From a virus, in the IMG/VR virus record IMGVR_UViG_3300037589_000077, positions 1 through 47,674 of that record: a DNA stretch of 47,674 nt; one strand, written 5' to 3'. The notes beneath the pieces are model-generated. The model had not been told where the DNA came from. It saw only the letters and a program-made list of their open reading frames with translations, and made no database searches. The first letter of the stretch is position 1. Every line of letters starts with the position of its first letter. Shown one piece after another: positions 4,370 to 36,256 of the stretch. The position numbers and the translations under genes are program-made.

Positions 4370-4472
4370 CCGACGACCTGACCCGCCTTGAGCGCACGCT
4401 CAAGGCGGGTCACCACCACCCGCACACCACCCCCGACGAATCCCCACCACCCCACAGACAAGGGAGCACACC

Positions 4473-10105: not shown

Positions 10106-12176
10106 AGCCGAACTTAGGATCAAGCCCGTCCTCGCGGGCGTGGGGTCGTGGCGTCGCGGGATCAGCGGCCTCAAGGGCGACACGCGCGCGCTCGGGCGCA
10201 CCCAGGTCTCCGAGCTCGCGCGGGGGCGCCGGGAGGCTGCGCGCCTCGAGGGCAGCTTCGATCGGGTCGGGCGCTCGGCGCGCTCGATCGGGGACGGCCT
10301 GAAGTCGAGCCTCGGGCAGCTCGCCTCCCTGAAGACGCTCGCCGCCGGCTTCGTCGTCGGCGGCGCGGGCAAGACGATCGTCGACGGGCTGATCGGCTCG
10401 AACGCCAAGCTCGAGGCCCAGAAGATCACGTTCAACACGCTCGTGGGCGACGCCGACAAGGCCGCCGCCCTCCTCGCGCGCGTCCGTCGATACGCCGCCG
10501 AGACGCCGTTTCAGCAGGACGACTTGATCGAGGGGAGTAAGGCGCTCCTGCGTCTGACCGGGGAGAACGCCGACGAGAACATGAGGCTGCTCGAGATCGC
10601 GGGGAAGTTCGCCGCGATCAACCCTACGAAGTCCGTGGGCGACGCCGTCGAGGCTCTGCTCGACGCCGAAGGGCTCGAGTTCGAGCGTCTCAAGGAGTTC
10701 GGGATCAAGCTCAAGAAGGAGGACATTCAAAAGTACAAGGAGAGCGGAAAGACCCTGGGCGACGCCGCGCTCAAGGCCGTCGAGGCCGCGCTGACCAAAC
10801 AGACCGGCGGGCGCGACCCGGTGACCGCGCTCAGCAAGTCCTTCAACGGCAAGCTCTCGACGTTCAAGGACCAGTTCAAGGAGTTCGTGCGCAAGGGCGG
10901 CGAGCCCGCCTTCGAGGTCTTGAAGGACGGCATGGACGAGGTCGGCGAGGCGTTCGGCGAGCTCGGCGCCGACCCGGCCTTCAAGAAGGACATGGAGGAG
11001 CTGGCCGGGTACTCCGTCGAGATCGCCAAGGCCAGCGTCAGGCTCGCCAAGGAGTTCCCCGGCTTCGTGCGCGACCTGCGCAAGTTCGGCGAGGAGTACG
11101 GCGACGTCATCAAGGTCGTGGGCGGCGGCCTGCTCGTGAACAAGCTCACGGGCGGGGCCGCCGGGCGCCTGGCCGTCCAGGGCGGCGGCGCGCTGCTCGG
11201 TGGCACCATGCGCCTGGGCTCGCGTGTGCTGTTCGGCAAGAAGGGCGGGCGCATGGGCCGGGGTGGAGGGGCGCTCGGCCAGGGCATCGGCGCCGCCGGC
11301 GCGATGCCCGTCTACGTCGTGAACATGGGCGAGATGGGGGGCATGGCTGGCGACCTCTTGGGTGAAGCGGCCGAGCTGGGGTTGAAGACCTTGGTCGGCG
11401 CGGGGAGCGCCAAGGGAGCAGGCGTGGCGATGGGGTCCTACGGGATCAGCGGCTCGGGGCTCGTGGGCGTCGCTGGTGCGGGCCTGGCCGCGGGAGTGGG
11501 CGCAGGTCTGGCCACCACCGCCGCGGTGGGCTACGGCGGCTGGCAGGTCGCCCAGGCGACCGACAAGTTCAACAAGCACTTCGAGGCGCGCGCCAAGGCG
11601 GCCCAGGACGAGACGGATTGGTACAACGGCATGCGCAACTCCATGGCCTTCAAGGAGTTCACGCGCACGGTCGACCAGCAGAAGCAGGACTTCCGGCGCG
11701 ACGAGATCCGCAGCGCCGAGACCAGCCTGTTGTTCAAGGGTGGGCGCGGAGGCGGCGCGGCCGGGGCGCGCTACCGGCTCGAGAACGCCTTCCAGATGAT
11801 CGACCCATCCAACGTCTTCGAGCAGCGCGCCTTCGTCGCCCAGACCAACAACCGCCTGCGCAGCCAGGGCATCGAGGTCGACTTCGACGAGGACGGGACG
11901 CTGCTGGCCAGCGCGCTCGAGGGCGCGGGGGCGAGCGGGCGCAGGGCTGCGCGTGAGCTCGCCGAGGCCGGCTCGCTGCGACCGCAGGACTACCAGGAGT
12001 TCCAGCGCATGCCCACGGCCGAGGAGATCGGGCAGAACGTCAAGAGGGCGATGGACGGCGTGCTCTCCACGCTCGGGGTGACGGTCGTCGTCCAGGGCAA
12101 CGTGGACGCTGGCGGCGTCGGGGCCATCGAGGAGGGCGTGGGGCGCGCGCTCGAGCGCAACAGGAGCCGGTCGTGA
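10098..12176 (+). CDS. tail tape measure protein
   Basis: 692 aa. N-terminal tape-measure signature (TFNTLVGDADKAAALLARVRRYAAETPFQQDDLIEGSKALL), Gly/Ala-rich hydrophobic centre, canonical position. Confidence 0.85.
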   Translation: MSEAELRIKPVLAGVGSWRRGISGLKGDTRALGRTQVSELARGRREAARLEGSFDRVGRSARSIGDGLKSSLGQLASLKTLAAGFVVGGAGKTIVDGLIGSNAKLEAQKITFNTLVGDADKAAALLARVRRYAAETPFQQDDLIEGSKALLRLTGENADENMRLLEIAGKFAAINPTKSVGDAVEALLDAEGLEFERLKEFGIKLKKEDIQKYKESGKTLGDAALKAVEAALTKQTGGRDPVTALSKSFNGKLSTFKDQFKEFVRKGGEPAFEVLKDGMDEVGEAFGELGADPAFKKDMEELAGYSVEIAKASVRLAKEFPGFVRDLRKFGEEYGDVIKVVGGGLLVNKLTGGAAGRLAVQGGGALLGGTMRLGSRVLFGKKGGRMGRGGGALGQGIGAAGAMPVYVVNMGEMGGMAGDLLGEAAELGLKTLVGAGSAKGAGVAMGSYGISGSGLVGVAGAGLAAGVGAGLATTAAVGYGGWQVAQATDKFNKHFEARAKAAQDETDWYNGMRNSMAFKEFTRTVDQQKQDFRRDEIRSAETSLLFKGGRGGGAAGARYRLENAFQMIDPSNVFEQRAFVAQTNNRLRSQGIEVDFDEDGTLLASALEGAGASGRRAARELAEAGSLRPQDYQEFQRMPTAEEIGQNVKRAMDGVLSTLGVTVVVQGNVDAGGVGAIEEGVGRALERNRSRS

Positions 12177-13168
12177 TCGTGAGCGTGGACATCGGCGGCG
12201 CGATCTTCGCGCGCGGGGACGTGCGCCTGATCTCGGGTCAGGTCGTGCGCGAGCGCGGCAAGAAGAAGTCCTCGTCGGCGGCCTTCGGGTTCGCCGACCC
12301 CGACGGCGAGTTGTTCGCCACGCTGCCCGCGCTCGAGCGCGCCGAACCGCTGCCGGTCTCGGTGCGTGTCGGTCCGACCCCGGCCACGCTCACCACGATC
12401 TTCAACGGCCGCGCGAGCTCGATGGGTTGGAGCTGGGCGCCCGGTCGCCTCTCGCTCCACTCCGTCGACAGGTCGCGCGCGTCCAGGCGCCGGCGTCGTA
12501 CGCGCACGCTCGCGCGCACCTCTCTGGGGGACCTGGCGCGCGAGCTCGCCGAGGCCGACGGCCTCACGCTCGAGACGATCGCGGCCGACCCGGAGGCACT
12601 CACGGGGTACGGCGCCGTGCTCCAGCACGCCGAGTCGGACTGGGACACGCTCGAGCGGGTGGCCGCCGCGCTCGGGCACGACGTCTTCGTCGACGGCGAC
12701 GTCCTCCACATCGCCCCGGTGTGGGCGGCCCAGGAGCCTTCGGCGCAGGGGGTCGTGATCCGTTCGGATTCCCCCGAGCTCGCGCGCCTCGACGTCTCGA
12801 TCACCGAGCCGCTACCCTCGACGACCGCGCGCCTGCTCGACGTGGACGGCGAGCAGAGCGGGGAGGACGAGGGCGAGGCCACCGAGCGGCTCTCGGCGCG
12901 CCGGCGCGTGGGCCTGAACCTGGGCGCGGAGGTCTCCCCGGCCGACCTCAAGGAGCTGGGGCGCCTGGCCATGAAGGGCCGCGCGCGCGTGACGAAGAGG
13001 GTCAAGGCGAGCGTGTCGCTCGAGGAGCTGCGCCCCGACATCTCCGAGCGCGAGGTCATCGCGCTGTCGGGGTTCGGCGCGCGCGTCGACGGGACGTGGA
13101 GGGCCGAGCGCGTCGCGTTCGACCTGGCCGGCCTGAACACGAAGCTCGCGCTCTTGAAGGTGGTGTGA
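12173..13168 (+). CDS. baseplate hub / late control gene D-like protein
   Basis: 331 aa. GTGA overlap with the tape-measure stop. Segment HAESDWDTLERVAAALGHDVFVDGDVLHI resembles the gpD / Mu P family. Positional support. Confidence 0.6.
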   Translation: MIVSVDIGGAIFARGDVRLISGQVVRERGKKKSSSAAFGFADPDGELFATLPALERAEPLPVSVRVGPTPATLTTIFNGRASSMGWSWAPGRLSLHSVDRSRASRRRRRTRTLARTSLGDLARELAEADGLTLETIAADPEALTGYGAVLQHAESDWDTLERVAAALGHDVFVDGDVLHIAPVWAAQEPSAQGVVIRSDSPELARLDVSITEPLPSTTARLLDVDGEQSGEDEGEATERLSARRRVGLNLGAEVSPADLKELGRLAMKGRARVTKRVKASVSLEELRPDISEREVIALSGFGARVDGTWRAERVAFDLAGLNTKLALLKVV

Positions 13169-13902
13169 TGCGCTGGACGCGTGAGGACATCGACGACCTG
13201 TACGACTTCATCGTGGGCGAGGTGCGCGAGGCCTTCGAGGGCGCCAGACTGCGCCGCTTCGGCGCCTACACCGCGCGCGCCACTGGCGTGGCGCGCACCT
13301 TCCGGCGTCTCCAGGTCTCGGCCGACTGGTACCCCGAGGGCGCGCTCGACTACGCCCGGCGCGTCGCCTCGCCCATCCTCGACGTCATCGCCACGGGCGA
13401 CACGTACATGGCCGTGACCTCGCACGACGGCGTGCCCGAGCTCCCGCTGGTACTCGGGCAGGTGTGGGACGAGCGCGTCAAGGCGATGACGGTGTGGGTG
13501 CGCGCCTACCTCGACGCCCACCCTGGGCGCCTCGAAGTCGGGGCGCTGAAGTCCCTGCTGCTGCGCGTGGGCACGGACTCGGGATGGGAGGGGGGCGAGG
13601 AGCGCGCCGCGATGCGTGAGGACGTCCCCGACGGCGCCGCGGTCATCGAGTCCGACGACGTGCGGCTGGGTGCGGTCGATGCCGCCGACTTCGTCGCGCT
13701 CGCCTCCAAGGTCGAGGCGGAGCTCGACGCACTGTGGACGGCCATGAACACGCACGTGCATACCAGCGCGGCGCCAGGCGTCCCCACGGGACCAGCCATC
13801 ACACCGCCCAGCGGCACGACGCCGCCTGCGCCGCCTTCGGGCGCGGGGGCGTTGCCATCGGGGGCTGGGGCTGTCGGAGCTACAAGGGTCAAGGCGAAGT
13901 GA
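13168..13902 (+). CDS. central spike / baseplate protein candidate
   Basis: ATG overlaps the upstream TGA (TGATG). C-terminal NTHVHTSAAPGVPTGP followed by a Pro/Gly-rich tail, reminiscent of spike-apex HxH motifs. Confidence 0.45.
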   Translation: MRWTREDIDDLYDFIVGEVREAFEGARLRRFGAYTARATGVARTFRRLQVSADWYPEGALDYARRVASPILDVIATGDTYMAVTSHDGVPELPLVLGQVWDERVKAMTVWVRAYLDAHPGRLEVGALKSLLLRVGTDSGWEGGEERAAMREDVPDGAAVIESDDVRLGAVDAADFVALASKVEAELDALWTAMNTHVHTSAAPGVPTGPAITPPSGTTPPAPPSGAGALPSGAGAVGATRVKAK

Positions 13903-13934
13903 GAGTGAAGAGGGCCCGGTGCGTAGGCGTTCGG

Positions 13935-13963
13935 TTGGTGTTAAAGTTCACCTTCAACACCAA
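13935..13963 (+). promoter_or_regulatory. hairpin / inverted repeat TTGGTGTT-N13-AACACCAA just upstream of the lipoprotein RBS
   Basis: Perfect 8-bp arms read from the sequence, located in the AT-richer spacer between the spike gene and the moron. Confidence 0.3.
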
Positions 13964-13978
13964 CCATACGGAGGGAAC

Positions 13979-14620
13979 GTGAAGCACTGGATGGCATTCA
14001 TTCTCATGCTGATGGCGCTCGTCGTCGGGTGCGAGTCGAGCATGGACAAGGCGAATCGGCAGGCTCGCGAGAAGCAGGCTCGTCAAGCGGATGAACTCCG
14101 AGAGTATGAGAGGCAACGCAAAGAGAAGCGCGCCAAGGAAGCATCCGAGAGGCGCCTCACTCCCAGCATCTATCCTGACATGGTGCCTGTCTTTAGGGGG
14201 GAACAGGCCGTGGAGGACTTCCTGAAGCGAAAAGGGGCCCTCCAGGGCAAGCTCTCGCTGAAGAAGGCGTACAAGGAGTATAGCCTCTATGTTTGGCCCA
14301 ATGGCTCCAGAATCGAGGCAGAAGGAGGCGGAGACATCGTCAAGGTCAAGCGTCGCGACCACGGCGTCAGTGACTATGAGTATGGGTATGTCCCTGCGAG
14401 CTGGGTCGTTGCCGCTCCCTACCCGAACGAGAAGGACATCGAGCGCATCGCCGAAGATGAGCGGATCAAGACCATGGAGTGGCTGGAGAAGCATGCGTCG
14501 GAGAAGAAGGGGCGCTCATGCTGCAAGTTTTGCGAGAACGGCAAGGCATGTGGCGACACCTGCATCCCACGCAATCGAACGTGCACCGATGGCCGTGGGT
14601 GTGCGTGCAATGCTTGGTGA
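13979..14620 (+). CDS. moron-encoded lipoprotein with a Cys-rich C-terminal motif
   Basis: GTG after GGAGGG. N-terminus VKHWMAFILMLMALVVGC is a signal peptide plus lipobox. Lys/Glu-rich body. C-terminus CCKFCENGKACGDTCIPRNRTCTDGRGCACNAW. Codon usage is visibly AT-richer than the flanks. Confidence 0.65.
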   Translation: MKHWMAFILMLMALVVGCESSMDKANRQAREKQARQADELREYERQRKEKRAKEASERRLTPSIYPDMVPVFRGEQAVEDFLKRKGALQGKLSLKKAYKEYSLYVWPNGSRIEAEGGGDIVKVKRRDHGVSDYEYGYVPASWVVAAPYPNEKDIERIAEDERIKTMEWLEKHASEKKGRSCCKFCENGKACGDTCIPRNRTCTDGRGCACNAW

Positions 14621-14685
14621 AGGCTGAGAACGCCGAGTTCCGGGCGATGCTCGAGCAGGCCTCCAACCCACCTCAAAGGAACCCC

Positions 14686-15171
14686 ATGACCATCTTCGTC
14701 ACCACAGCCGGCGTGCAGGCCACCGCGCGCCAGGGCTACCGGGTGACGCTCGCCTTCCACTTCGACCCCGTCCCCGAGCTCGTCACGCTGCTGCACAACC
14801 CCGAGGGGTGGACCCACGAGCGGACCGCGAAGTGGCAGCCGCGCGGCGCGCCCGGTGTGGAGCGTGACGCGCTCGACTGGACGGGCAACGAGCCTGCGCG
14901 CCTCTCCTTCGACTTCCTGACCACGAGCGAGGACACCGGCCGCCTCGAGGACCAGGTGCTGCGCCCGCTCGAGCGCCTGCCCTTCGAGGTGCGTCGCCCG
15001 TTGCTCGAGCCGCCCCAGGTCACCGTCCAGTTCGGCGCCCACGGCTACCGCGGGAGCATCTCGAGCGTGTCGGTCAACCGCGTGCGCACCGACGCCGCGG
15101 GCCTGGCGCGCGTGGCGCAGGTCTCGGTCCAGATGATGGCGAACGCCAAGATCGTGCGAGGTCCGCAGTGA
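14686..15171 (+). CDS. baseplate / tube-initiator-like tail protein (candidate)
   Basis: ATG 5 nt after AAAGGA. Motif PPQVTVQFGAHGYRGSISSVSVNRVRTDAAGLARVAQVSVQM resembles tube-fold baseplate proteins of contractile systems. Confidence 0.5.
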   Translation: MTIFVTTAGVQATARQGYRVTLAFHFDPVPELVTLLHNPEGWTHERTAKWQPRGAPGVERDALDWTGNEPARLSFDFLTTSEDTGRLEDQVLRPLERLPFEVRRPLLEPPQVTVQFGAHGYRGSISSVSVNRVRTDAAGLARVAQVSVQMMANAKIVRGPQ

Positions 15172-15782
15172 GCCAGTCCGAGTCCCCCTTCGACCGCCTG
15201 GGCGCGCGCGCCGACTCGCGCCCCCAGCGCGCCCGCGCGCTCACCGGCGGCGAGACCGCGTTCCGGCTCGCGCACGAGGAGCTGGGCGAGTGGAGGGTGT
15301 GGCGCGAGCTGCTCGAGTTCAACGCCATCGACGACCCCTTCGACCTCCAGGGCCGCACCCACTCCTCGGCCGAGCGCATGACCGTGGAGTTCGGGCTCGT
15401 CGAGGGCGACGGCGCCGACGACGTCGACCTCGCCGCCGAGCTCGGCCAGGGCGTCCGCCTCGTCTGGGCGACGCCCGAGCTCGAAGGCCGCGGCGAGCTG
15501 CTCGTCACCGATACTGCCTTCGGAGCCTACACGCTCGCGTTCCGCGCGCCCGGTGAAGACGCCGCCGGCGCTGCGCTCGCGGTGGTGGACGCCGACCTCG
15601 AGGAGGCCGACGGCTCGGCGCGCGCGTGGCGCGGGCTGCTCACGAGCCAGTCTGGGCGTTACGCCGTCGACCTCGAGGTGAGCCCCGAAGCCTGGCTCAT
15701 CCTGTGGCTCGCGCGCTGCGTGCCCGTGGTGTTCGCGCCCGAGCGCGCCCGCTCCGAGCTGCTCGTTCCCGAGCTGACCTGA
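15168..15782 (+). CDS. baseplate-module protein with a LysM/gpX-like N-terminus
   Basis: GTGA overlap with the upstream stop. TGGETAFRLAHEELGEWRVWRELLEFNAIDDPFDL resembles tail protein X / LysM. Confidence 0.5.
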   Translation: MSQSESPFDRLGARADSRPQRARALTGGETAFRLAHEELGEWRVWRELLEFNAIDDPFDLQGRTHSSAERMTVEFGLVEGDGADDVDLAAELGQGVRLVWATPELEGRGELLVTDTAFGAYTLAFRAPGEDAAGAALAVVDADLEEADGSARAWRGLLTSQSGRYAVDLEVSPEAWLILWLARCVPVVFAPERARSELLVPELT

Positions 15783-15807
15783 CCTCCCCACGATCCCAAG
15801 GGACCCC

Positions 15808-16188
15808 ATGACCACAGGCACCTACGGCGCCGGGCTCGAGCGCCCGGCGCGCGCGACCGGTGCGGGCAGGCTCGCGCTAACGGGCGGCGAGGAGCGCGTG
15901 TGGGAGTCCGTCGCCGAGATCCTGGCCACGCCGCTGGGGTCGTGTCCGCTCGACCCGACGTTCGGCGCCGCGATCGAGCTGCTCGACCCGGTGTCCAACG
16001 TCGAGCGCCTGGCGTGGGCGGTCGGCCAGGCCATCGAGTCGTGCGAGCCGCGCGTGCGCGACGTCTACGTCAACGTGCTGCCCGACGCCGGCGGGACCGA
16101 CGGCGACGTCGCCATGCAGATCGGCCTGGTCTTGAACGACGGGCGCACCCGCCTCAACCGCATCTTCCCCTTCTACCGCAAGGTCTGA
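15808..16188 (+). CDS. baseplate wedge protein, gp25 / GpW family
   Basis: 126 aa. TPLGSCPLDPTFGAAIELLDP and CEPRV motifs are typical of GPW_gp25. Confidence 0.85.
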   Translation: MTTGTYGAGLERPARATGAGRLALTGGEERVWESVAEILATPLGSCPLDPTFGAAIELLDPVSNVERLAWAVGQAIESCEPRVRDVYVNVLPDAGGTDGDVAMQIGLVLNDGRTRLNRIFPFYRKV

Positions 16189-18026: not shown

Positions 18027-18878
18027 ATGGCCAAGACCACCTTCGTCGACGGCGTGACCGTCGTGTCCGCCGACTTCCTCAACGCCACCCAGGAGCACGT
18101 CCACGACGGCGCCGACGCCGACGGCAGCGCGCCCAAGGTCAACCTGTTCGACCACGTGGACTGGGGTGACCACGCCGAGGTCGTGCTGACCGAGGACACC
18201 ACCGACGACTGGATCGCCGAGCTCCGGCCCACGAACCTCAACCCGCTCAAGGGCGAGCTCGTCTTGCCCACGGTGCGCGTGCGCGGCGAGCTCGTCTTCG
18301 GGCCCAACTCGGCCGCCGCGACCGACCAGAAGGTCACCACGCTCGACCGCGCCGGCGTGACGGGGCCGACGACGACGACCGACTGGCAGGCCATCAAGCC
18401 CACCGAGTCCAGGCGCGCGCTCGCCATGAGCACGTTCGCGCCCAGGCGCCAGAGCCCCAACGGCACCGAGTCCGCCGGCGGCACGCCTGACGTGGGGCAC
18501 GCCGCCGCGCTCTACCTCGACAACCTCACCAAGGTCTCGTGCGTGATCCAGACCTCGACCTCCGGGGGCACGGCGAGCCTGCCTGGCGGCGAGGTCCAGT
18601 ACAACGCTGCTGGCGTCTCCTGGCTCTCCTCGGGGGCCATCGAGCTCACGTTCGCCGACGCGCTGCCCGCCGCGCCCAGGCTCGCGGTGACGTGCGGCTC
18701 GGTGACCGCCGACAAGAACACCGACGCCTACATCTACACCGCCCAGGTCGGCACGACCGCGGTGGGCACCGCCCAGATCTGGCTCTTCGAGACGCGCCTG
18801 TCCGACGGAGTCACGACCCTGCTCAAGCCCTCGGCGTCCGGCGCGCTCGACGTGCGCTTGCACGTCACCGCCCACTGA
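18027..18878 (+). CDS. tail fibre / receptor-binding protein (candidate)
   Basis: ATG 6 nt after GAGGAGGG. N-terminus TFVDGVTVVSADFLNATQEHVHDGADADGSAPKV is typical of fibre N-termini. Ser/Thr/Gly-rich remainder. Confidence 0.6.
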   Translation: MAKTTFVDGVTVVSADFLNATQEHVHDGADADGSAPKVNLFDHVDWGDHAEVVLTEDTTDDWIAELRPTNLNPLKGELVLPTVRVRGELVFGPNSAAATDQKVTTLDRAGVTGPTTTTDWQAIKPTESRRALAMSTFAPRRQSPNGTESAGGTPDVGHAAALYLDNLTKVSCVIQTSTSGGTASLPGGEVQYNAAGVSWLSSGAIELTFADALPAAPRLAVTCGSVTADKNTDAYIYTAQVGTTAVGTAQIWLFETRLSDGVTTLLKPSASGALDVRLHVTAH

Positions 18879-18925
18879 GCTCCTCCTTGAAAAACCTTCC
18901 CCCCGACTCCACCTCGAGGTGACCT

Positions 18926-19345
18926 GTGGCGACGACCCTTTGGCAGAAGTTCGAGAGCGCGGTGCGCTGGGCGCGCGGCGTGACCCAGGCCGGCGTGGCC
19001 ACGATGCGCGTGGCGCCGGCGGCCCTCACCCCCCACCGGCTGCTCGACGAGGTGACCGCCACGGGCGCGGCTCCCACCGTCGTGGGCGACGGCGCCGACA
19101 TCGAGGGCCTGGCGACGGTGAACCTCGGGTACGTTCACTCGGTCGCTGCGCAGACGAGCGAGATCGTCATCTGGCTGTGGGACGGGGAGCACTGGCTCGA
19201 GCACTCGACCCAGACGCTCGACAAGACCGCTGGCGCGCTCGACGCGCTCGACACCGAGGGCTACCCGCGGATCGCGGTCCAGCTCACGACGGCGCCGGGA
19301 TCGGGCAACGTGACCGTCAAGGTCTTCCCGCACAACGAGGCCTGA
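18926..19345 (+). CDS. hypothetical tail-fibre-associated protein
   Basis: GTG 5 nt after GAGGTG. 139 aa. Positional inference only. Confidence 0.45.
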   Translation: MATTLWQKFESAVRWARGVTQAGVATMRVAPAALTPHRLLDEVTATGAAPTVVGDGADIEGLATVNLGYVHSVAAQTSEIVIWLWDGEHWLEHSTQTLDKTAGALDALDTEGYPRIAVQLTTAPGSGNVTVKVFPHNEA

Positions 19346-19347
19346 GC

Positions 19348-20184
19348 ATGGGGAGCCTGCGCGCACGCATGAGGCCTCGCTGGCGCGATCGGCTGCGGGA
19401 GCGGTTTCGCCGGTCGGTCGCGTCACCTGCGCCCGAGCCCAACCCGCTCATCTGGCCAGACGGGGCGGCCACGGTGCACTACGCCGGCGCCGACGCCATC
19501 GACGCCGGCGCCTGGCCCGAGGCCGACGGTGGCGCGAGCATGGCGCGCGTGGTCGACGCCGCGCCCCCGGATGACTCGGCCACCCACCCCCGGCGCGTGG
19601 TCTGGGGCGTCGAGTCCGACGGGGAGGTGGGCGTGGCCTACGACCGTGAGGGCAACGCCTGGCACGCGCCTGGCGTCGATCTCATGCGCAACGTCACGAG
19701 CGCGCACATCGCGCTCGTGGTCTCGGTCCAGCTCGAGGTCGCAGACGGCGAGCGCGGGCTGGCGTGGTGGTCGCGCGGCACGACCGCGGCCGGCTCGCGC
19801 GTCTACCTCTACGCGTCCTCGACCGAGGTGGGCATCGGCATGCGCAGGCTCGATGGGGACTCCTACACATCAGCCTCGTGGCCTGTGACCTGGGGCAATA
19901 CAGACCTCGTCGAGGTCGTGATCGACTGGTCGGCGCGCACCGCCGAGGTGCTCGTGGGCGGCGTGAGCGTGGGCACGCTCACAGGCATCGGGTCCTCGGG
20001 CGGCGCGACCTCGGACACCGCGAGCCAGACGAGCGCGATCGGCTCGACCAACGACAACGCCGGCGACCTCACGGGCATCGTCCACGCCGTCTGGGTGTGG
20101 AGCGGCGCGGACGTGCTCGACGCTCCGGGGCGGGCCGCGTGGCGCGCGCTGGTCTCACCGGTGCTCGCGCGCGTGAGCGTGTAG
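19348..20184 (+). CDS. LamG / concanavalin-A-like lectin-fold protein (paralogue 1)
   Basis: ATG at 19348. Pattern SAHIALVVSVQL...LAWW...RVYLYASSTEVGIGMRRLDG...VEVVIDWSARTAEVLVGGVSVG...GDLTGIVHAVWVWSGA matches jelly-roll lectin-like domains. Confidence 0.5.
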   Translation: MGSLRARMRPRWRDRLRERFRRSVASPAPEPNPLIWPDGAATVHYAGADAIDAGAWPEADGGASMARVVDAAPPDDSATHPRRVVWGVESDGEVGVAYDREGNAWHAPGVDLMRNVTSAHIALVVSVQLEVADGERGLAWWSRGTTAAGSRVYLYASSTEVGIGMRRLDGDSYTSASWPVTWGNTDLVEVVIDWSARTAEVLVGGVSVGTLTGIGSSGGATSDTASQTSAIGSTNDNAGDLTGIVHAVWVWSGADVLDAPGRAAWRALVSPVLARVSV

Positions 20185-20226
20185 CGGCCGCCACCACCCA
20201 TCACCTCCCACACGGAGTACATCGAC

Positions 20227-20553
20227 ATGACCATGATCCAAGGCCAGCCGCTCTACAACGACACCGTCACCATCGCCTCGGGGACGGGCACGATCCCGAC
20301 GCCCTCGCCTGCGCGCTCGCTGAGCCCGAACACGGGCGTGGCGATCATCATCACGAGCGCGGGCGCGGCCGGCGAGCTCGTGTACGACCCGGCCGACACG
20401 GTCGGGCACACCTACGAGGCGGTGGCTGACGACGTCGAGGACTTCGTGGTGGGGGCCTGGCGGTGGGGCGAGGACGGCGCCGACCTCCCGCTCACGCTCA
20501 AGAGCGGCACCGACGGGGCCGTCGGCGTGATGATCGTGGAGGTCATCCGGTGA
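20227..20553 (+). CDS. hypothetical protein
   Basis: 108-aa ORF with backbone codon usage, located between the two LamG-like genes. Confidence 0.45.
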   Translation: MTMIQGQPLYNDTVTIASGTGTIPTPSPARSLSPNTGVAIIITSAGAAGELVYDPADTVGHTYEAVADDVEDFVVGAWRWGEDGADLPLTLKSGTDGAVGVMIVEVIR

Positions 20554-21425
20554 CTTCCACGGCTGAGCTTTTGATGGGGCGCGGTGCGTTCGGGCGGGGG
20601 CTGCGCCTTGGGCGCCAGCGTCGTGGCGGCCCGAGTGCGCCCGGCTTCGACGCTGGCTCATATGGTCCACTCGTCTCCTGGACCACGTCCCGTGGCCTGG
20701 GCAACACGCTCCCTGTGGGCGACCCGATCCCCACCGTGACGGGCCAGGGCCCGGGTGCAGTCGTGCTCAGGTCCGGTCAGGGCTCCACGGTGCGTCGACC
20801 CACCTACAGGTCGGGGCCCGAGCGCATCGAGTTCGACGGCGTGGACGATTTCATGGACCCGGACCCCTCGGGGGATGTGACGCTTTGGGACTTCCTGCAT
20901 CGCCTCGACGATGAGGGCGGCGGTGGCCAGGGGACGGTCTACGCGTTGCTCCGGCTCGCCAACGCTGCGAGCGGTACGAGACACCCGATCTTTTGCACAC
21001 GCACCCTCGGGGTCAACGCCAACTCACGCGGCGTGGCCTTCTATATCGACGACACGAGCGGGGCCAACCGGCTGCGCCTCGACCTCGTGGACGGACTCAA
21101 GCGCGAGACCTACTCGCCCGAAACGGTCGCCTACGACCTGGGCGCCACGACCGCGTGGGTGGGGGTCGCCGCCACGTGGTCGGGCGTCAGCGGCGAGGAG
21201 GGCATGCGCCTGTACGCCAACGGCGCGCAGCTCGGCGCGGACATCGCCGTGGCCACGACGAGCGTGGGCAACAACGCGACGGCGCCGCGCTGGGGCCTGC
21301 CCACGTCGGGGAGCGACTACTTCGCTGGCGACGTCATCGACTGGGCGATCTACTCCGAGGCGCTCGCGCCCGCGACGATCGCCTCACTGGACACGGCCGC
21401 GCAGGTCATCCTGGGAGGGTCGTGA
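20550..21425 (+). CDS. LamG / concanavalin-A-like lectin-fold protein (paralogue 2)
   Basis: GTGA overlap with the upstream stop. IEFDGVDDFMD...GTVYALLRLANAAS...AFYIDD...WVGVAATWSG...MRLYANGAQLG...YFAGDVIDWAIYSEAL is a Laminin_G_3-like pattern. Confidence 0.55.
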   Translation: MTSTAELLMGRGAFGRGLRLGRQRRGGPSAPGFDAGSYGPLVSWTTSRGLGNTLPVGDPIPTVTGQGPGAVVLRSGQGSTVRRPTYRSGPERIEFDGVDDFMDPDPSGDVTLWDFLHRLDDEGGGGQGTVYALLRLANAASGTRHPIFCTRTLGVNANSRGVAFYIDDTSGANRLRLDLVDGLKRETYSPETVAYDLGATTAWVGVAATWSGVSGEEGMRLYANGAQLGADIAVATTSVGNNATAPRWGLPTSGSDYFAGDVIDWAIYSEALAPATIASLDTAAQVILGGS

Positions 21426-21829: not shown

Positions 21830-22227
21830 CGCGTCTGACCGACGAGACACCCGAGGGCGCCGAGGCGCGCGGGCGCGTGAGCCGGTGGCTGTTCCTGGGC
21901 GGGGTATTCCTGGCCGCCGCCTGGAACATCATCCCGGCCGCGCTGGGTCCTACGTGGGATACCATCAGCGAGCAGCTCGAGCTGCTCATGGCCCGCTGGT
22001 GGTGCATGCCGATCGCGCTCGGGGTGGTCGTGGGCCACTGGACGGGCTGGCGTCCCGAGTGGGCGCCGGCGTGGGGTCCGTGGGCGCTGCTCGTCCTGGG
22101 GCTCGTGCTCGTGGGTGTGTGCTGGGCGGACGCGGTGAGGGTCGAGGACTACCGGGCGCGGTTCGCGTTGGCGCACCTCGGGCTGTGGATGGGCGCGATT
22201 CTTTGGAGCATGGGAGGTTCGACATGA
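21826..22227 (+). CDS. multi-pass membrane protein, holin candidate
   Basis: ATGA overlap. 133 aa with 3-4 hydrophobic segments (WLFLGGVFLAAAWNIIPAAL, CMPIALGVVVGHW, WALLVLGLVLVGVCW, LGLWMGAILWSM). Directly upstream of the endolysin. Confidence 0.5.
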   Translation: MTRLTDETPEGAEARGRVSRWLFLGGVFLAAAWNIIPAALGPTWDTISEQLELLMARWWCMPIALGVVVGHWTGWRPEWAPAWGPWALLVLGLVLVGVCWADAVRVEDYRARFALAHLGLWMGAILWSMGGST

Positions 22228-22901
22228 ACGAGAGAGTGAGTAGGTGGGCCGACGAGATCGAGGACGTGCGCGAGCGGCTGGGGCTGGGGGAGGACCTCTA
22301 CCCCATCGCCGTCGGGCTCGTGCTCATCGACGTCGAGTCTGACGGAGACCCGAAGGCGCACCGCCGCGGGTCGCAGTACTACGGGATGCTCCAGATGGGG
22401 CGCCTGGCGGGCATCGACGTCGGGTTCGCCGATCGTGGGCGCAAGACCACCGCGTCGCTCTCGGGCGACCCGGTGCGCGCCATCGAGATGTGGCTGCGCT
22501 ACTGCGTCAGGTACACCGACCGCCTGCACTACGAGGACGACCGCGCGCCGCTGTGGGCGCGCTTCGCCGTGCTGTGGAAGGGGGGCGCGGGCACGGCACG
22601 GCGCGTGCGCGACTACCTCGCCGAGCACCCGGCCGCCACGCTCGGCGACGCGCTCGAGTGGATTGAGTTCAACCCGAACCCCCGCTGGCGCGTCCCGAAC
22701 CTGCGCGAGTACGTGCGCCGGTCGGGGCGGGCCTGGGAGGTGTGGTCGCCGTGGGTGCGCGACCACTACCAGCCTGCGGTCGTGCGCGCGCCGCTGATCG
22801 CCGACGAGGTGGAGGCGCCGCCGGCGGACCTCGCCGAGCTCGGGGGAGCGCTCGTCTCGCTGGCGCGCGGCATCCTCGGGCTGTGGGGAGGTCGGGCATG
22901 A
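22224..22901 (+). CDS. endolysin, lytic transglycosylase (SLT-like)
   Basis: IDVESDGDPKAHRRGSQYYGMLQMG contains the catalytic E-S and GxxQ motifs of SLT domains. ATGA overlap with the upstream gene. Confidence 0.75.
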   Translation: MNERVSRWADEIEDVRERLGLGEDLYPIAVGLVLIDVESDGDPKAHRRGSQYYGMLQMGRLAGIDVGFADRGRKTTASLSGDPVRAIEMWLRYCVRYTDRLHYEDDRAPLWARFAVLWKGGAGTARRVRDYLAEHPAATLGDALEWIEFNPNPRWRVPNLREYVRRSGRAWEVWSPWVRDHYQPAVVRAPLIADEVEAPPADLAELGGALVSLARGILGLWGGRA

Positions 22902-23146: not shown

Positions 23147-23604
23147 GCGACGTCTCCCAGATGACCACCGCGCAGCTCGTGGAGTTGACGCACGCGGGCC
23201 CCAGGCGACGCCTGGTCTTCCACGGTCTGTGGGTCGGCGGTGTCCTGCTCATGGCGGTGTTTCAGCTCTCATGGGGCCTGGGGCTCGCGCTGTGGGTCGA
23301 CCCTGCCTCGACGGCGAGCTTCGACTTGCTTGAGCACATGGGCCCGTTCGGGCTCCAGGGCGGCGTGGTCACGCTGCTCGTGGTGCCCGTGGTCGCGGGC
23401 GCGTGGCGCGGCGGGCTCGCTGGCGTGGGTGCGTGTGTGCTCCAGGTCCTCGTGTGGAGCTACGTGCTCATCGCGATGATGGGCGCGAACCCCAGGACGA
23501 CCGCTCCCCCCATCTACGGCACCATCTTGCTCACGTGCGCCGGGCTGCTCGCCTACGCCGTCTACGAGGTGATCGCCGCGGCCATCGCACACAGGGGGTC
23601 GTAA
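23143..23604 (+). CDS. four-TM membrane protein
   Basis: GTG 7 nt after GGAGG. 153 aa with four hydrophobic stretches. Confidence 0.5.
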   Translation: MSDVSQMTTAQLVELTHAGPRRRLVFHGLWVGGVLLMAVFQLSWGLGLALWVDPASTASFDLLEHMGPFGLQGGVVTLLVVPVVAGAWRGGLAGVGACVLQVLVWSYVLIAMMGANPRTTAPPIYGTILLTCAGLLAYAVYEVIAAAIAHRGS

Positions 23605-24104
23605 TGGCTGCCGACATGGGGACCGTCATCGCGCTGGCCGTTGGGCTCGTTGGCTCAGCAGGCATCGGCGGGATCATCGGCGCGATCCTCAAGGCGCGCT
23701 CGGATGGCTCGCGCCTCGAGCTCGACGCGCAGGCCGAGCTGCGCAAGCGGATCGTGGGCCTCGAGGAGGTCAACCGCGAGATCCAGGAGAAGCTCAACGC
23801 CGTGAGCGTCGAGCTGGGTGAGCTGCGCGGGGACCTGCGCGCGCGCGATGGCGAGGTCCAGCTCCTGCGTGATCGGCTCGCCGAGCGCACCGACGAGCGC
23901 GACGAGGCCCGCGCCGAGCGGGACAGCTACAAAGAGCAGCGAGACGAGGCGATGCGTGCGCTGCACGCACGCGCGCCCGACACTGCCGAGGTCCTGCTCG
24001 CCGACGCCGACGAGGCACGCAGCCTGCCAGACTCGGCGCCTGAAGGGTGGGAGCCTCGCGGGCTGGGAGAGGTCACCAGCGAAGCACGGGGTGAGGACGC
24101 GTGA
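23604..24104 (+). CDS. N-terminal TM + coiled-coil protein (i-spanin-like)
   Basis: GTVIALAVGLVGSAGIGGIIGAIL followed by a long charged heptad-like region (ELRKRIVGLEEVNREIQEKLNAVSVELGELRGDLRARDGEVQLLRDRL). Confidence 0.5.
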   Translation: MAADMGTVIALAVGLVGSAGIGGIIGAILKARSDGSRLELDAQAELRKRIVGLEEVNREIQEKLNAVSVELGELRGDLRARDGEVQLLRDRLAERTDERDEARAERDSYKEQRDEAMRALHARAPDTAEVLLADADEARSLPDSAPEGWEPRGLGEVTSEARGEDA

Positions 24105-24394: not shown

Positions 24395-24770
24395 CCACCT
24401 CACCCTGCTCGCCGTCCTGGGCGCGGCCGTGTGCGTCGGCGTCGCCATCGCCTCGGCGCGCCTGACCTGGCGCCAGCGCGCCGGCCTCATCGCCGGCGCT
24501 GCGACGCTGCTGGGTGGGCTGTGGGCGCTGCTGCGCGGGGAGCGACGCGACGCCCCCGAACTCCCGCCCCCTCCCCCGCCTGCGCCGCCCCTCGGGTCGG
24601 AGTCGGGGGACGACGGCGCTGACGGTCATGTCAAGCGCCCCAACCCCTCCTACCTCGAGGTCCATCGTGAAGACGACGACCCCGCGCCGCGCCCTGATCG
24701 CGACGCTGTTGATGCTCACCTGCTCGACATCCACCGCCGCCGCACAGGAGGGGGATCCTCCGACCCGTGA
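24384..24770 (+). CDS. hypothetical membrane protein (two hydrophobic segments, Pro-rich tail)
   Basis: ATG at 24384 overlaps the upstream gene end. The 3' part overlaps the next ORF in another frame, so its extent is uncertain. Confidence 0.35.
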   Translation: MSPDHLTLLAVLGAAVCVGVAIASARLTWRQRAGLIAGAATLLGGLWALLRGERRDAPELPPPPPPAPPLGSESGDDGADGHVKRPNPSYLEVHREDDDPAPRPDRDAVDAHLLDIHRRRTGGGSSDP

Positions 24771-25188
24771 GCGGCGCAACGCGTGCGGCACCAGGCTGAT
24801 CGAGGACCTGCCCTGCGAGGTGTGTGTCTCCGAGGAGGTCAACGTCGAGTGCGCGCGACGCGCTGGCGTCGACGCCGCACGCGCGAAGGCCGACCAGGAG
24901 CGCGCCGCGGCCATCGGCGCGCGCGACACCGCGCGCGAAGGCGAGGAGAAGGCCAAGGCCGAGGCGCGCCGGCTGCGTGACGAGCTCGAGCGCGAGCGGA
25001 TCGCGCTCGCGCTACGCCCCCCGCCGGCGCGCGTCGCTGGCGCCACGCTCATGGGGTCAGGCGGCGCGGGCATCGCCGTCGCCCTCGTGCGCCTGGGGAT
25101 GACCGGCGAGCTCGACGTCGGGCTCGTCGTCGTCTCCGGGGTGCAGCTCGTCGGGGGCGGGCTGGTGTGGTGGTGGGGCGGGGAGTAG
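24667..25188 (+). CDS. secreted or lipoprotein-like protein with a C-terminal TM anchor (unimolecular-spanin-like topology)
   Basis: GTG 6 nt after GAGG. N-terminus VKTTTPRRALIATLLMLTCSTSTAAAQ (signal peptide with Cys). Charged helical middle. C-terminus GAGIAVALVRLG...LVVVSGVQLVGGGLVWWWGG. Confidence 0.4.
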   Translation: MKTTTPRRALIATLLMLTCSTSTAAAQEGDPPTRERRNACGTRLIEDLPCEVCVSEEVNVECARRAGVDAARAKADQERAAAIGARDTAREGEEKAKAEARRLRDELERERIALALRPPPARVAGATLMGSGGAGIAVALVRLGMTGELDVGLVVVSGVQLVGGGLVWWWGGE

Positions 25189-25780: not shown

Positions 25781-26506
25781 TTACTCGTCCTCAGGTTCGG
25801 GAGGTAGAATGGGGGCTCGTGTGTTCCCCGCCCTGGCCTTCATGGCTTGGACGCGCGTCAGGAACGCGGCCTGCTCTTGCTTGCTCACGAAGTAGTGATC
25901 GATGGCCTCCAGGACAAGGTCCCACGCAAACTCAGCGTCTTCGCGCTCGACACCAATGAGTTCACCCGTGGTCATGTCCGTAGAGCTGTGGGCACCGAAG
26001 TTGCCAAGGTTTCGGATCGCGTCCACGCCTTGCCTGATCGAGTACGGTTCATGCTCCATCTCGACGTACTTCTCGATCTTGTCGACCAACCGACCGCGCG
26101 CGAGGCCGGTCACCTCATCGGCCAAGATCGACTCGAGCAGCCTGCGACACATGACCGCCGCGGCCACCGGCGAAACCTTCAACACGAGATAGGTCTGGCG
26201 CAGCAGCTCGTGGTATTTCGCTGGAACTTCTTCCGGAACGATATAAGCGTCGTCGGCGTTCGGCCAAACATGGACCCTCTTGGACGACTTCGTTAAGACA
26301 TTCGTCCCGTTGGCGGGGGCCTGCAGCACTTCGGTAAAAACGCCTCCACACGCAGGACACTTCAATGTGTGTGAGACACGAGAAAGTGTTTGGGCGCCCT
26401 TTCTTTCGATCGTCACCGACTTACCCCAAGGCACTCCAAGCTTGAAAGTTATGCTGCAATGCGGACATGGGTGGTATTCGTATGCTGGTCTTGCTTGTTG
26501 TGCCAT
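25781..26506 (-). CDS. zinc-ribbon + DUF4145-like protein (paralogue A)
   Basis: ATG after GAGGAGGAAAGAG. CPHC...CPAC N-terminal ribbon. C-terminal AAVMCRRLLESIL...GRLVDKIEKYVEME...VDAIRNLGNFGAH...DAEFAWDLVLEAIDHYF pattern. AT-richer codon usage than the backbone. Confidence 0.8.
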   Translation of the reverse strand: MAQQARPAYEYHPCPHCSITFKLGVPWGKSVTIERKGAQTLSRVSHTLKCPACGGVFTEVLQAPANGTNVLTKSSKRVHVWPNADDAYIVPEEVPAKYHELLRQTYLVLKVSPVAAAVMCRRLLESILADEVTGLARGRLVDKIEKYVEMEHEPYSIRQGVDAIRNLGNFGAHSSTDMTTGELIGVEREDAEFAWDLVLEAIDHYFVSKQEQAAFLTRVQAMKARAGNTRAPILPPEPEDE

Positions 26507-26585
26507 CTCTTTCCTCCTCGGTTAATCACCGCGCAATAGCTTCGTGCAGAAGACGCCACCGGCGGGATCGCTAGCTTGGTTCTGC

Positions 26586-27362
26586 CTACTCGGTTGGCTC
26601 AGGCGGCAGGATCGGAGCCTTGGGGTCGATGGGGTTCTTGGCGGCTTTCATCTCGGCAACCCTCCTCATCAACTCAGCGTGTTCAGCCGCTTCGATGAAG
26701 TAGTGGTTGATGAAGGACACGGCGACCTTCCAGGCAGTCTGGGCCTCATCGCGAGTCACCGAGATCACATCACCTGAGGTCTTCTCCTCGGAGGTGTGCG
26801 CACCGAAGTTGCCCAGGTCCCGGATTGCGTCGACCGTCTTTCGCAGATGTCTGGGCTGGTCTTCCATCTCAACGTACTTCTCGATCTTGTCCACAAGCCG
26901 CCCTTTCTCCAGGCCGGGCACTTGCTTGGCGAGGATGTCCTCGACGAGGCGGCGACATAGGACCGCGGCGCCCTCAGGAGCCACCTCCAAGCTCGCGTAC
27001 GTTTGCTTAAGCAGTCCGTGGTAGCGCTCAGGTACGCTCTCGTGGGGCATGTAGAACGCCTCAGGGTTTGGCCAAACCGCAACCCTTTGAGGAAGTGCGG
27101 TCAAGACGTCAGCTACGGGCTCATCATATGAAGCGCTCAAGGGCCTCCCGATCACGGCCCTGACGATGTCGACAAAGACCTCTCTGCAGTTTTGACACGT
27201 AAAGGTCTTCGCGCCCACGCATTCGTAGCGTCGAATACCTTTGAGCTCGTCATCGACGATCGAATCGGTGTGAAGATCATTGGTTTCCATTTCTTGATGG
27301 TTCATCACACCACAATGAGGACATTTGTGGTAGTTGAGCGCGTTCGTACTCTGCTTCGACAT
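26586..27362 (-). CDS. zinc-ribbon + DUF4145-like protein (paralogue B)
   Basis: ATG at 27362, 5 nt after AGGAGGG. CPHC...CQNC ribbon. AAVLCRRLVEDIL...GRLVDKIEKYVEME...VDAIRDLGNFGAH...INHYF. Colinear with paralogue A, including the APILPPEP tail. Confidence 0.8.
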   Translation of the reverse strand: MSKQSTNALNYHKCPHCGVMNHQEMETNDLHTDSIVDDELKGIRRYECVGAKTFTCQNCREVFVDIVRAVIGRPLSASYDEPVADVLTALPQRVAVWPNPEAFYMPHESVPERYHGLLKQTYASLEVAPEGAAVLCRRLVEDILAKQVPGLEKGRLVDKIEKYVEMEDQPRHLRKTVDAIRDLGNFGAHTSEEKTSGDVISVTRDEAQTAWKVAVSFINHYFIEAAEHAELMRRVAEMKAAKNPIDPKAPILPPEPTE

Positions 27363-27400
27363 CTCATCCCTCCTATGGGTTCGTTGGTTCCAAGCCCGGC

Positions 27401-27409
27401 ATTCTACCA
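27401..27409 (-). promoter_or_regulatory. extended -10-like element TGGTAGAAT (minus strand) about 40 nt upstream of the paralogue B start
   Basis: The plus strand reads attctacca. It is flanked by 7-bp inverted repeats (GGTTCGT 27378..27384 / ACGAACC 27413..27419). Confidence 0.3.
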
Positions 27410-27616
27410 CGCACGAACCAAGCCAACACAGTCACCCCCGATGTTCTCGTGGTGGCTCTCTCGGCTGTCTTATCCAACGGTATAGAACTCTAGATCGTCG
27501 TATCTGTTCGGGTGCGCTCGCGACGCTCATGCACCGCGACTTCATCGGCCAGATCCATCGGCTCGCCCTCCATGCCCCATCTCTCTGTGTGGTCTTCTTG
27601 GTCATGCTCACGCCCC

Positions 27617-27652
27617 TCGTGTACACGAAGGGGCCCGTTCGTGATCACGAAC
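27617..27652. promoter_or_regulatory. two related palindromes: TCGTGTACACGA (27617..27628) and GTTCGTGATCACGAAC (27637..27652)
   Basis: Perfect dyads read from the sequence. Shared core TCGTG-ww-CACGA, with centres 22 bp apart. The second overlaps the stop codon of the 27645..28103 gene. Confidence 0.5.
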
Positions 27653-29334: not shown

Positions 29335-29483
29335 CCTCTCCTCCCTCTTCGGCGCACCGCGAGGGCGCGCTCCGTCGTGTAGCCCCGGACCAGCTCCGGG
29401 AACTCCTTCTTCCACACCTTCATCAACGTCTTGTGGTCCCGCTTCTCGAGGTCCCCAAGCCACGTCTTCGTCGAGACCTTCAC
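29280..29483 (-). CDS. small hypothetical protein (uncertain)
   Basis: GTGA overlap with the upstream stop. 67 aa. Its 3' end overlaps the next gene start by about 55 nt. Confidence 0.3.
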   Translation of the reverse strand: MKVSTKTWLGDLEKRDHKTLMKVWKKEFPELVRGYTTERALAVRRRGRRGCSERTGAITTRSGHTDL

Positions 29484-36180: not shown

Positions 36181-36256
36181 CCACCACCCACGGGCACGCG
36201 GCGGCTACCACCACATCGGTCGCCGGGTGCCTGACACCACCACGGACGGACCCACC

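Follow-up and report, generated by a model that had tools for sequence, protein, structure and literature searches.

A gene for a predicted lipoprotein of 213 amino acids (aa), located at 13979..14620 in the baseplate gene block of a viral genome (IMG/VR record IMGVR_UViG_3300037589_000077; "the window" hereafter denotes the whole stretch analyzed, positions 1 to 47,674 of that record), is well supported as a horizontally acquired accessory insert, and its product ends in a 33-residue, eight-cysteine (8-Cys) module which, judged by sequence, belongs to a very large family devoid of a name or a database definition. The foreign DNA amounts to 783 bp (13903-14685) and occupies a mosaic junction within the baseplate block, directly 3′ of a mobile gene for a probable spike. 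Accessory lipoproteins encoded in tail operons are a known kind; what is new is that this one lies outside the characterized exclusion families and carries a widespread module that the databases leave undefined. Accessory genes in tail operons include some of the most direct weapons that phages deploy against competitors, such as HK97 gp15, Cor, and Llp. To our knowledge, very few families of this type have been characterized, and almost none outside the enterobacteria and lactic acid bacteria.

The first-pass annotation, made from the letters of the sequence, had described a 213-aa open reading frame (ORF) between a spike-like gene ending at 13902 and a baseplate gene starting at 14686, with noncoding spacers on both sides, a hairpin at 13935..13963, its own GGAGGG ribosome-binding site (RBS), and a composition richer in AT than that of its flanks, and every one of these features was recovered upon reanalysis (Table 1). 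Base 13903 is the first after the upstream stop codon, and the ORF itself begins at 13979. The spacers measure 76 and 65 nt; elsewhere in the baseplate block, genes overlap by 1-4 nt or leave gaps of 7-35 nt. These are true spacers, because the downstream start at ATG 14686 is backed by a common N-terminus, MTIFV in the window and MTIKV in the homologue of the related locus L003. A competing start for the downstream tube-like gene at GTG 14617, overlapping the lipoprotein stop codon, was ruled out, as the homologues share MTI.V at ATG 14686. The lipoprotein ORF has a GC content of 0.587 and a GC content at third codon positions (GC3) of 0.738, compared to 0.70-0.75 and 0.89-0.98, respectively, for the eight flanking tail genes, and ranks among the lowest 3.2% of 642-nt windows by GC. 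The plus-strand frame is confirmed as coding, for its C-terminal 35 aa match hundreds of proteins at high significance; an antisense ORF of 201 aa (13889..14494) is a shadow. Public gene callers place the start at Met5 (209 aa, P0001), and an identical protein is also called on a second metagenome contig (L002).

The hairpin, delimited here as 13933-13965, has a predicted free energy of -20.1 kcal/mol (z = -3.95), a stability equaled by none of 200 shuffled sequences, and the downstream spacer exhibits no significant folding. The idea that the hairpin is a repeated regulatory element or a known RNA was discarded, because it is found a single time in the window and matches nothing in Rfam. In the gap that follows the 3962-4369 gene of the head module, a perfect 16-bp inverted repeat with a 2-nt loop (4379-4412) is similar in style to this hairpin and looks like a terminator or attenuator without a U-tract. 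A search for target-site duplications or flanking repeats around the insert returned only 9-14-mers at chance level.

Related phages were located via their Baseplate-J homologues (42-50% identity), which yielded seven loci with usable tail modules (L003-L008 and L131), and their gene orders were read by tblastn with the window proteins. None of the seven tail modules contains a tblastn homologue of the lipoprotein gene, which indicates that the lipoprotein is not a conserved structural part. Two relatives have other, nonhomologous lipoprotein genes in their own baseplate blocks, and in one of these (L003/L004) the same slot is used. Together with the foreign composition and the true spacers, this absence bears out the horizontal acquisition that had been proposed at first pass. 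Closer relatives were sought in IMG/VR (using three tail proteins), among GenBank phages, and in JGI metagenomes; these searches found no near-isogenic phage lacking the insert, the best relatives being 42-50% identical, bar an 80% identical J fragment on a 1.4-kb contig.

The gene orders place the insert at a junction with a history of rearrangement. The window reads tape-measure protein (TMP), hub, p244 (the 244-aa product of the upstream neighbor), lipoprotein, tube-like, p204 (a 204-aa baseplate protein), gp25, J, and I. The order in L005-L008 is TMP, tube-like, p204, hub, gp25, J, I, and p244-like, with a fiber gene before the p244-like gene in L005-L007; that in L131 is tube-like, p204, hub, gp25, an 86-aa gene, p244-like, J, and I; and that in L003 and L004 is TMP, p244-like, four reverse-strand genes, tube-like, p204, hub, gp25, J, and I. 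The window baseplate (12173-15782) is rearranged with respect to all relatives, its hub gene preceding rather than following the tube-like and p204 genes, and in L005 and L006, where the tube-like gene has homologues, the tape-measure gene directly abuts it. A p244-like homologue is present in all relatives, but its place varies: across the clade, it is found behind TMP, behind the hub, between gp25 and J, or behind the fiber gene, four positions in all. The p244 gene therefore behaves as a movable cassette, at the 3′ boundary of which the lipoprotein gene is located.

The same slot, the interval between the p244-like and tube-like genes, is filled in L003 (4499-7214, minus strand; equivalent to L004 1703-4418) by four cargo genes with a GC content of 0.50-0.61 in a module of 0.67, the first of which encodes a 199-aa lipoprotein (…LVALLAAC…), the other three being unknown. 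In L005, the interval between J and I (11258-12738, minus strand) holds lower-GC genes for a 267-aa Cys-rich lipoprotein (…LGLVAC…) and a 203-aa membrane protein. No homology was found among the lipoproteins of the window, L003/L004, and L005, so three related phages took up three different lipoprotein genes in their baseplate blocks. The comparison supports the view that the junction is recombination-prone and cargo-accepting.

A recombinogenic junction of this sort, with the spike gene at four positions among the relatives, would also be the expected setting for a functionless passenger, that is, a gene recently captured and left behind at a junction created by the move of the spike cassette. 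The restriction of the gene to one lineage and its orphan, poorly predicted middle region of 118 residues are consistent with such an origin. However, the 642-nt ORF is intact, equipped with a good RBS and a canonical lipobox, and retains all invariant residues of the module, which makes a mere passenger very unlikely. The position directly downstream of the putative spike gene, shared by the lipoprotein gene that follows the spike gene in L003, raises in addition the prospect of a structural or spike-associated virion protein, for instance a spike-loaded cargo like the effectors whose genes adjoin VgrG. This we consider extremely improbable, given a Sec/lipoprotein signal that directs the protein out of the cytoplasm, where tails are assembled, its foreign GC content, and its absence from all relatives with otherwise complete tail modules.

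That the product is a lipoprotein precursor is well supported by sequence rules. A PS51257-type rule calls for a positive n-region, an uncharged h-region, and a lipobox of the form [LVI][ASTVI][GAS]C with its Cys at position 15-35. The N-terminus MKHWMAFILMLMALVVG↓C conforms to it, with Lys2 in the n-region, an uncharged h-region, and a lipobox stretch (ILMLMALVVGC) that ends in VVG↓C at Cys18; the rule is passed only from GTG 13979 and fails from Met5. The signal peptide and lipobox reported at first pass thus hold with the GTG start, as does the Lys/Glu-rich body: the mature protein consists of 11% E, 10% K, and 10% R, about one third in all. Nine cysteines are present, namely, the predicted lipidation site Cys18 and eight at 181-210, in the last 33 residues, with none between, in keeping with the C-terminal 8-Cys motif originally noted. 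Structure prediction with AlphaFold 2 (AF2) from the single sequence was poor for the full protein (predicted local distance difference test score, pLDDT, of 54) and yielded a helix at residues 2-57, with pLDDT 80-93 across residues 21-50.

Between the helix and the module lies a region (residues 59-176) for which neither a word-index search of 5.8 billion proteins nor an exhaustive HMMER scan of 1.84 billion representatives returned relatives, nor did the Pfam, NCBIfam, and PHROG families, and its AF2 pLDDT is below 50. The string GYVPASWVV resembles the last strand of a bacterial SH3 domain, and SH3_3 is present in many relatives of the Cys tail module; this assignment was rejected, as Pfam gave no match at E<=1 and a phmmer comparison of residues 19-176 with 167 family proteins gave a best E of 1.2. 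With the whole protein, the word-index search retrieved only itself, Pfam, NCBIfam, and PADLOC provided no match, PHROG provided only insignificant spanin matches, and 50,697 phage records contained no match. PDB sequence searches with the protein and with a module profile produced nothing meaningful, a 17-residue match (ACGDxCI; E 0.15) to pectin lyase-like proteins being coincidental. These Pfam, NCBIfam, PHROG, and PDB results uphold the earlier statement that no named family fits, and a defense-system reading of the lipoprotein was set aside for lack of a PADLOC match.

In stark contrast to the orphan region, the 8-Cys module has a multitude of relatives. The exhaustive scan recovered 502 representative proteins at E<=1e-3, all with alignments anchored on residues ~175-212. 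Typical single-module matches score 1e-7 to 1e-8, and the lowest E-value, 3.5e-31, belongs to a tandem-repeat protein. A profile search extended this set to 1,447 proteins at E<=1e-3, nearly all of them short, exported proteins, all of them unnamed or "hypothetical," and none bearing a precomputed Pfam domain. In the family consensus, CCKxCxKGKACGDSCIxRxxTCxKGPGCACNG, neither the eight Cys nor a Gly-Asp…Ile core varies. A typical member has 60-100 aa and consists of a signal peptide, a short linker, and the module. Among 118 small members, an N-terminal hydrophobic, signal-like stretch is found in 115 and a lipobox in nine, 8 or 9 Cys are usual, and in 102 the chain stops 2-3 residues past the last Cys. 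The window protein retains every invariant column (eight Cys, G, D, and I) and, like ~90% of members, terminates just beyond its last Cys, at a distance of three residues. It differs in its lipid anchor, its helical stalk, and its orphan insert of 118 residues, whereas other long members feature SH3_3, SNase, or LysM; among 71 longer members, the module is preceded by SH3_3 (12), SH3_4 (4), SNase (3), Excalibur (2), DUF4236 (2), LysM (1), or PEGA (1). Four eukaryote-like proteins (P0002-P0005) comprise a signal peptide followed by 3-10 tandem modules, with a C-terminal transmembrane segment in P0002 as well, and these tandem copies imply that the module is limited neither to bacteria nor to a C-terminal position.

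Profile and structure searches of the C-terminal region, as suggested at first pass, place it in this large unnamed family, with no significant structural counterpart in PDB or BFVD. The module is covered by no Pfam model (121 members scanned), NCBIfam model, or PDB sequence, and a literature search on motif strings found no protein paper. AF2 with an alignment of 121 sequences predicts a compact mini-fold of four short strands with a core pLDDT of ~85, for which Foldseek returned zero PDB matches and nothing significant in BFVD. The eight module cysteines most likely form four disulfides, which is favored over a metal cluster because the family is exported and the window protein possesses exactly eight nonlipidated Cys.

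The genomic distribution of the module portrays it, from sequence context, as a recurrent cargo of phages and other mobile elements. In IMG/VR, 45 viral contigs that encode it were identified by a pattern scan, mostly in secreted proteins or lipoproteins of 55-130 aa, and the neighbors were checked by PHROGs at 17 nonredundant viral loci (Table 1). Seven of the 17 are in tail modules, and in most of the seven the gene is on the opposite strand, which has the classic look of an independently transcribed insert. At L083 and L123 no neighbor matched a PHROG, and at L098 the matches were to families of unknown function only. Outside viruses, the gene of L128 is part of an integrase/HigB island, and that of L129 resides on a conjugative element that has TrwC/TrwB. 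A partial relative is gp23 of the cultured Pseudoalteromonas phage C5a (L130 4938-5363), which contains a signal peptide, a 4-Cys half-module (CRKGQPCGNSCISWKKTC), and a true SH3 domain. Like the window protein, it is a predicted exported product with at least part of the module, encoded in an accessory slot, here between the replication and portal genes of a temperate-type, P2-like phage. Unlike the window protein, it is no lipoprotein, is encoded outside the tail module, is annotated as "SH3 domain-containing protein," and has only the 4-Cys core, placed at its mature N-terminus ahead of the SH3 domain. N-terminal half-modules similar to that of C5a gp23 were also observed in L121 and L122.

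Such a broad distribution is also compatible with lysogenic-conversion or host-benefit cargo that has nothing to do with phage exclusion and that the phage merely spreads. Its exported Cys-rich head would then serve the lysogen as the chromosomal mini-proteins serve cells, with functions such as metal or redox buffering, envelope stabilization, adhesion, or inter-bacterial antagonism. Most of the 1,447+ family members are cellular or metagenomic, the module also travels on a conjugative element, and fusions to SH3_3, SNase, LysM, and Excalibur suggest a general extracytoplasmic binding or anchoring module. Furthermore, some contexts are chromosomal and unrelated to prophages, as in two Rhodovulum species, where the gene is syntenic and lies by mobA-like and molybdenum-cofactor genes, and in L127, where it lies by MoCF_biosynth. 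Placement by tape-measure or tail-fiber genes in at least seven unrelated viral contigs, and by the spike gene here, is, however, not expected of a generic host-benefit gene, and the molybdenum link is absent from three further contexts; host benefit is thus a possible but rather unlikely explanation. In Rhodovulum, the chromosomal module gene (L124/L125/L126) neighbors a mobA-like NTP_transf_3 gene, with MoaA and ModA/TOBE nearby, and the L127 gene directly adjoins MoCF_biosynth. This molybdenum-cofactor neighborhood, seen at three cellular loci, is perhaps due to chance and was not relied on.

We tentatively favor, with somewhat less than even confidence, a role for the lipoprotein as an envelope-acting entry block or receptor mask. 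This reading is motivated by the predicted envelope targeting of the protein, by the repeated placement of this gene and of its module relatives beside genes for envelope-contacting proteins, and by the precedents of HK97 gp15, Cor, and Llp. By sequence rules, the protein would leave the cytoplasm via Sec, receive its lipid at Cys18, and stay anchored in a membrane, on the side of the periplasm or the cell surface. Beyond the lipid anchor, ~40 residues would form a charged helical stalk, ~118 would make up the orphan region, and the C-terminal 33 would constitute the 8-Cys head, which may be a self-sufficient functional unit, as in the exported mini-protein family. The Cys-knot head could then act as the binding element, positioned by the anchor and stalk, so that the lipoprotein would alter or occupy an envelope component needed by this or related phages for adsorption or DNA entry. 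The outcome would be the exclusion of superinfecting phages, the avoidance of wasting progeny on infected cells and debris, or both.

The known systems offer partial parallels. T5 Llp is a phage lipoprotein that acts on the envelope to block entry and to protect progeny. As with the receptor-blocking lipoproteins Llp and Cor, the present case involves a phage lipoprotein gene situated by host-recognition or tail genes; unlike them, it has no sequence similarity to either, and its 196 aa after processing compare with ~60-80 aa. Morons have been described as extra DNA relative to related phages, with deviant GC content, their own promoter and terminator, and expression from the repressed prophage (PMC3594210; after Juhala et al., 2000). 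Two of these attributes are found here, extra DNA relative to the seven related tail modules and deviant GC. The HK97 gp15 moron, which adjoins the tape-measure gene in the tail operon, confers superinfection exclusion (PMC3594210; Juhala, 2000; Cumby, 2012), and Cor of phi80, N15, and HK022 inactivates FhuA (PMC3594210). In common with gp15, the window gene is an extra gene of deviant GC in a tail operon, by the spike rather than the tape-measure gene, with a product predicted to be envelope-targeted; the same Cys module adjoins the tape-measure gene, the very position of gp15, in other phages; and the homologues are mostly chromosomal, nonphage proteins of unknown function. In contrast, gp15, a small YebO-family protein of the inner membrane, is neither a lipoprotein nor a carrier of the Cys module and has its own promoter and terminator as well as proven expression from the prophage, whereas neither element was detected here. 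Lipoproteins of the Ltp type, from Streptococcus thermophilus phages (TP-J34), are reported to be involved in superinfection exclusion (PMC3952083). Ltp resembles the window protein as a prophage-encoded, surface-exposed lipoprotein with a modular body, and departs from it in its Gram-positive host, its gene location in the lysogeny module, and its unrelated sequence.

Several observations weigh against an entry block. The lipoprotein is not homologous to Llp, Cor, Ltp, or SieA, nor to any PHROG exclusion, PADLOC, or Pfam family. The gene shares its strand with the late tail operon, and a consensus scan of 12500-16000 revealed neither a sigma-70-type promoter nor an intrinsic terminator, although the consensus may not be that of the host; expression might consequently be confined to the late stage and not occur in lysogens. 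Apart from the L002 copy, an identical fragment, the gene is known from one sequence, so selection on it is not measurable. The Rhodovulum module protein, an ordinary chromosomal gene product, implies that the family has a cellular role not necessarily related to phages. Finally, among named genomes, the closest relative is found on a 49-kb contig assigned to a Trueperaceae metagenome-assembled genome, with 42% identity in J. Should expression indeed be late, protection of progeny would be as plausible as exclusion in lysogens.

The late-operon strand and the failure to detect an independent promoter are also what one might expect of a late helper in lysis or release, namely, a lipoprotein that is cotranscribed with the tail genes and acts like a spanin or disrupts the envelope, and the lipid anchor, the long helix, and weak PHROG matches to Rz-like spanins (E 0.05-0.08) are in line with such a function. 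Nevertheless, these matches are insignificant and extend no further than residues 1-58, which span the signal peptide and the first part of the helix, the relatives lyse without the lipoprotein gene, and the gene is ~8 kb from a lysis-like cluster that has its own candidates at 23604-24104 and 24628-25188, all of which renders a lysis helper decidedly improbable. An identity as an outer-membrane spanin (Rz1-like) was rejected, since the gene adjoins neither an inner-membrane spanin gene nor a lysis cassette and its Rz-like matches are insignificant. The separate cluster (~21.8-25.2 kb), with its own spanin-like pair, counts in favor of the entry-block reading.

Table 1. Features of the lipoprotein insert, other landmarks of the window, and neighbors of module genes at viral loci
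Feature	Position or locus	Strand	Basis
Lipoprotein gene, 213 codons plus stop, GTG start	13979..14620	+	ORF analysis
Shine-Dalgarno-like GGAGGG, 3 nt 5′ of GTG start	13970..13975	+	
Upstream noncoding spacer, 76 nt	13903..13978	+	Sequence
Stem-loop, 10-bp perfect stem GGTTGGTGTT/AACACCAACC, not followed by a U-tract	13933..13965	+	Folding versus shuffles
Downstream noncoding spacer, 65 nt, AAGGA 5′ of ATG 14686	14621..14685	+	Sequence
Predicted signal peptide with lipobox (M/V)KHWMAFILMLMALVVG↓C, residues 1-18	13979..14032	+	PS51257-type rule, Cys18, Lys2
E/R/K/Q-rich predicted single helix (stalk), residues 19-58	14033..14152	+	AF2 and composition
Orphan middle region, residues 59-176	14153..14506	+	Homology searches, AF2
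8-Cys module CCKFCENGKACGDTCIPRNRTCTDGRGCACNAW, C-C-x2-C-x5-C-x3-C-x6-C-x5-C-x-C, residues 181-213	14519..14617	+	Homology, AF2
GPD-type hub	12173-13168		
p244, 244-aa putative central spike, upstream flank	13168..13902	+	Motifs
CIS_tube tube-like baseplate gene, 161 aa, downstream flank	14686..15171	+	Pfam PF19266, E 3e-5, below curated cut-off
ParB_N/HTH_ParB protein, 775 aa	29737-32064	-	
HTH_3 regulator	35890-36180	+	
ParA-type ATPase	36227-37072	+	
Module gene between tail-completion and tape-measure genes	L079/L080		PHROGs
Module gene between chaperone-position and tape-measure genes, sheath nearby	L104-L106		PHROGs
Module gene adjoining tape-measure genes	L090, L117		PHROGs
Module gene adjoining fiber or J-like genes	L099, L097		PHROGs
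Module gene adjoining tail protein	L081		PHROGs
Module gene adjoining integrases (4 of 17 loci)	L086/L087, L095 group, L110, L120 group		PHROGs
Module gene near terminase	L108		PHROGs
Module gene near methyltransferase	L085		PHROGs
Module gene near primase	L101		PHROGs

The window as a whole is a complete, circular genome of a myovirus-like phage of ~47.5 kb. Its first 127 bases (1-127) are exactly repeated at its end (47548-47674), an assembler k-mer overlap which implies that the contig is a closed circle of ~47,547 bp, and a large-terminase gene crosses the circle junction, with Terminase_6C at 6-443. The head genes encode a small terminase, the C-terminal domain of the large terminase, a portal, a scaffold, and a P22-type coat protein; sheath and tube were assigned via homology to the relatives, and the TMP is 692 aa in length. 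The p244 protein has no Pfam or PHROG match and is probably the central spike, owing to a gpV/VgrG-like motif (SxDGxPxxP..GxVWD) and a C-terminal HxH (THVH), the HxH being present in most aligned copies. The tube-like gene is followed by the p204, gp25-like, Baseplate_J, and Tail_P2_I genes and, further on, by fiber genes, one product of which contains a Laminin_G_3 domain. The lysis-like cluster includes membrane proteins, a plus-strand product (23604-24104) with an N-terminal transmembrane segment and a long coiled coil, and a second lipoprotein (24628-25188, plus strand; …LLMLTC…) that ends in a hydrophobic, transmembrane-like segment in a layout reminiscent of unimolecular spanins; the last two make up a candidate spanin-like pair. 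A suspected transglycosylase in the same region (22224-22901, with an ES…GMLQ motif) received no support from Pfam.

The presence of the ParB, ParA, and HTH_3 proteins and the finding of no integrase among the window ORFs scanned suggest a temperate phage in the style of a plasmid prophage (phage-plasmid). The ParA, the ParB-domain protein, the regulator, and a second low-GC island with PD-T7-4-like genes also make a lysogenic lifestyle plausible. This second island (GC 0.52-0.61; 25781-27410, minus strand) encodes two paralogous DUF4145 proteins (241 and 274 aa), both recognized by the PADLOC model PD-T7-4 (E 6.8e-8 and 4.6e-4) and likely anti-phage defense cargo. The genes beside it encode an RRF-like protein of 152 aa (27645-28103) and a protein with a cREC_REC domain (28447-29463). 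The prophage-like relative L005, on a 135-kb contig, has TIR_2, HEPN (RiboL-PSP/MAE_28990), and GmrSD_N genes next to its end, at 18322-21192, a defense island at the edge of the phage.

The locus provides a comparative example of three unrelated lipoprotein genes captured independently in the baseplate blocks of three related phages. In turn, the window gene is connected through the 33-residue 8-Cys signature with over 1,400 exported proteins that lack annotation and with a minimum of 45 viral contigs, frequently next to tape-measure or fiber genes. The hypothesis offered is that the module binds an envelope component required for phage entry. Its generalization, in which the 8-Cys family would consist of exported, disulfide-knotted mini-proteins that phages, conjugative elements, and integrative islands repeatedly carry as envelope-acting anti-phage factors (blocking entry or masking receptors), their genes typically adjoining the TMP, spike, or fiber gene whose function is counteracted, is unlikely on present evidence, and equally doubtful is the place of the window lipoprotein in it as a tethered, long-stalk version. 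If true, it would define a new and widespread class of superinfection exclusion, recognizable by a signature of 33 residues. Should the entry-block hypothesis fail, the module would nonetheless expose a considerable hole in the domain databases and merit a family definition. The value of this locus resides less in the single gene than in the lead that it gives to exported mini-proteins that are enriched on mobile elements, often beside tail genes.

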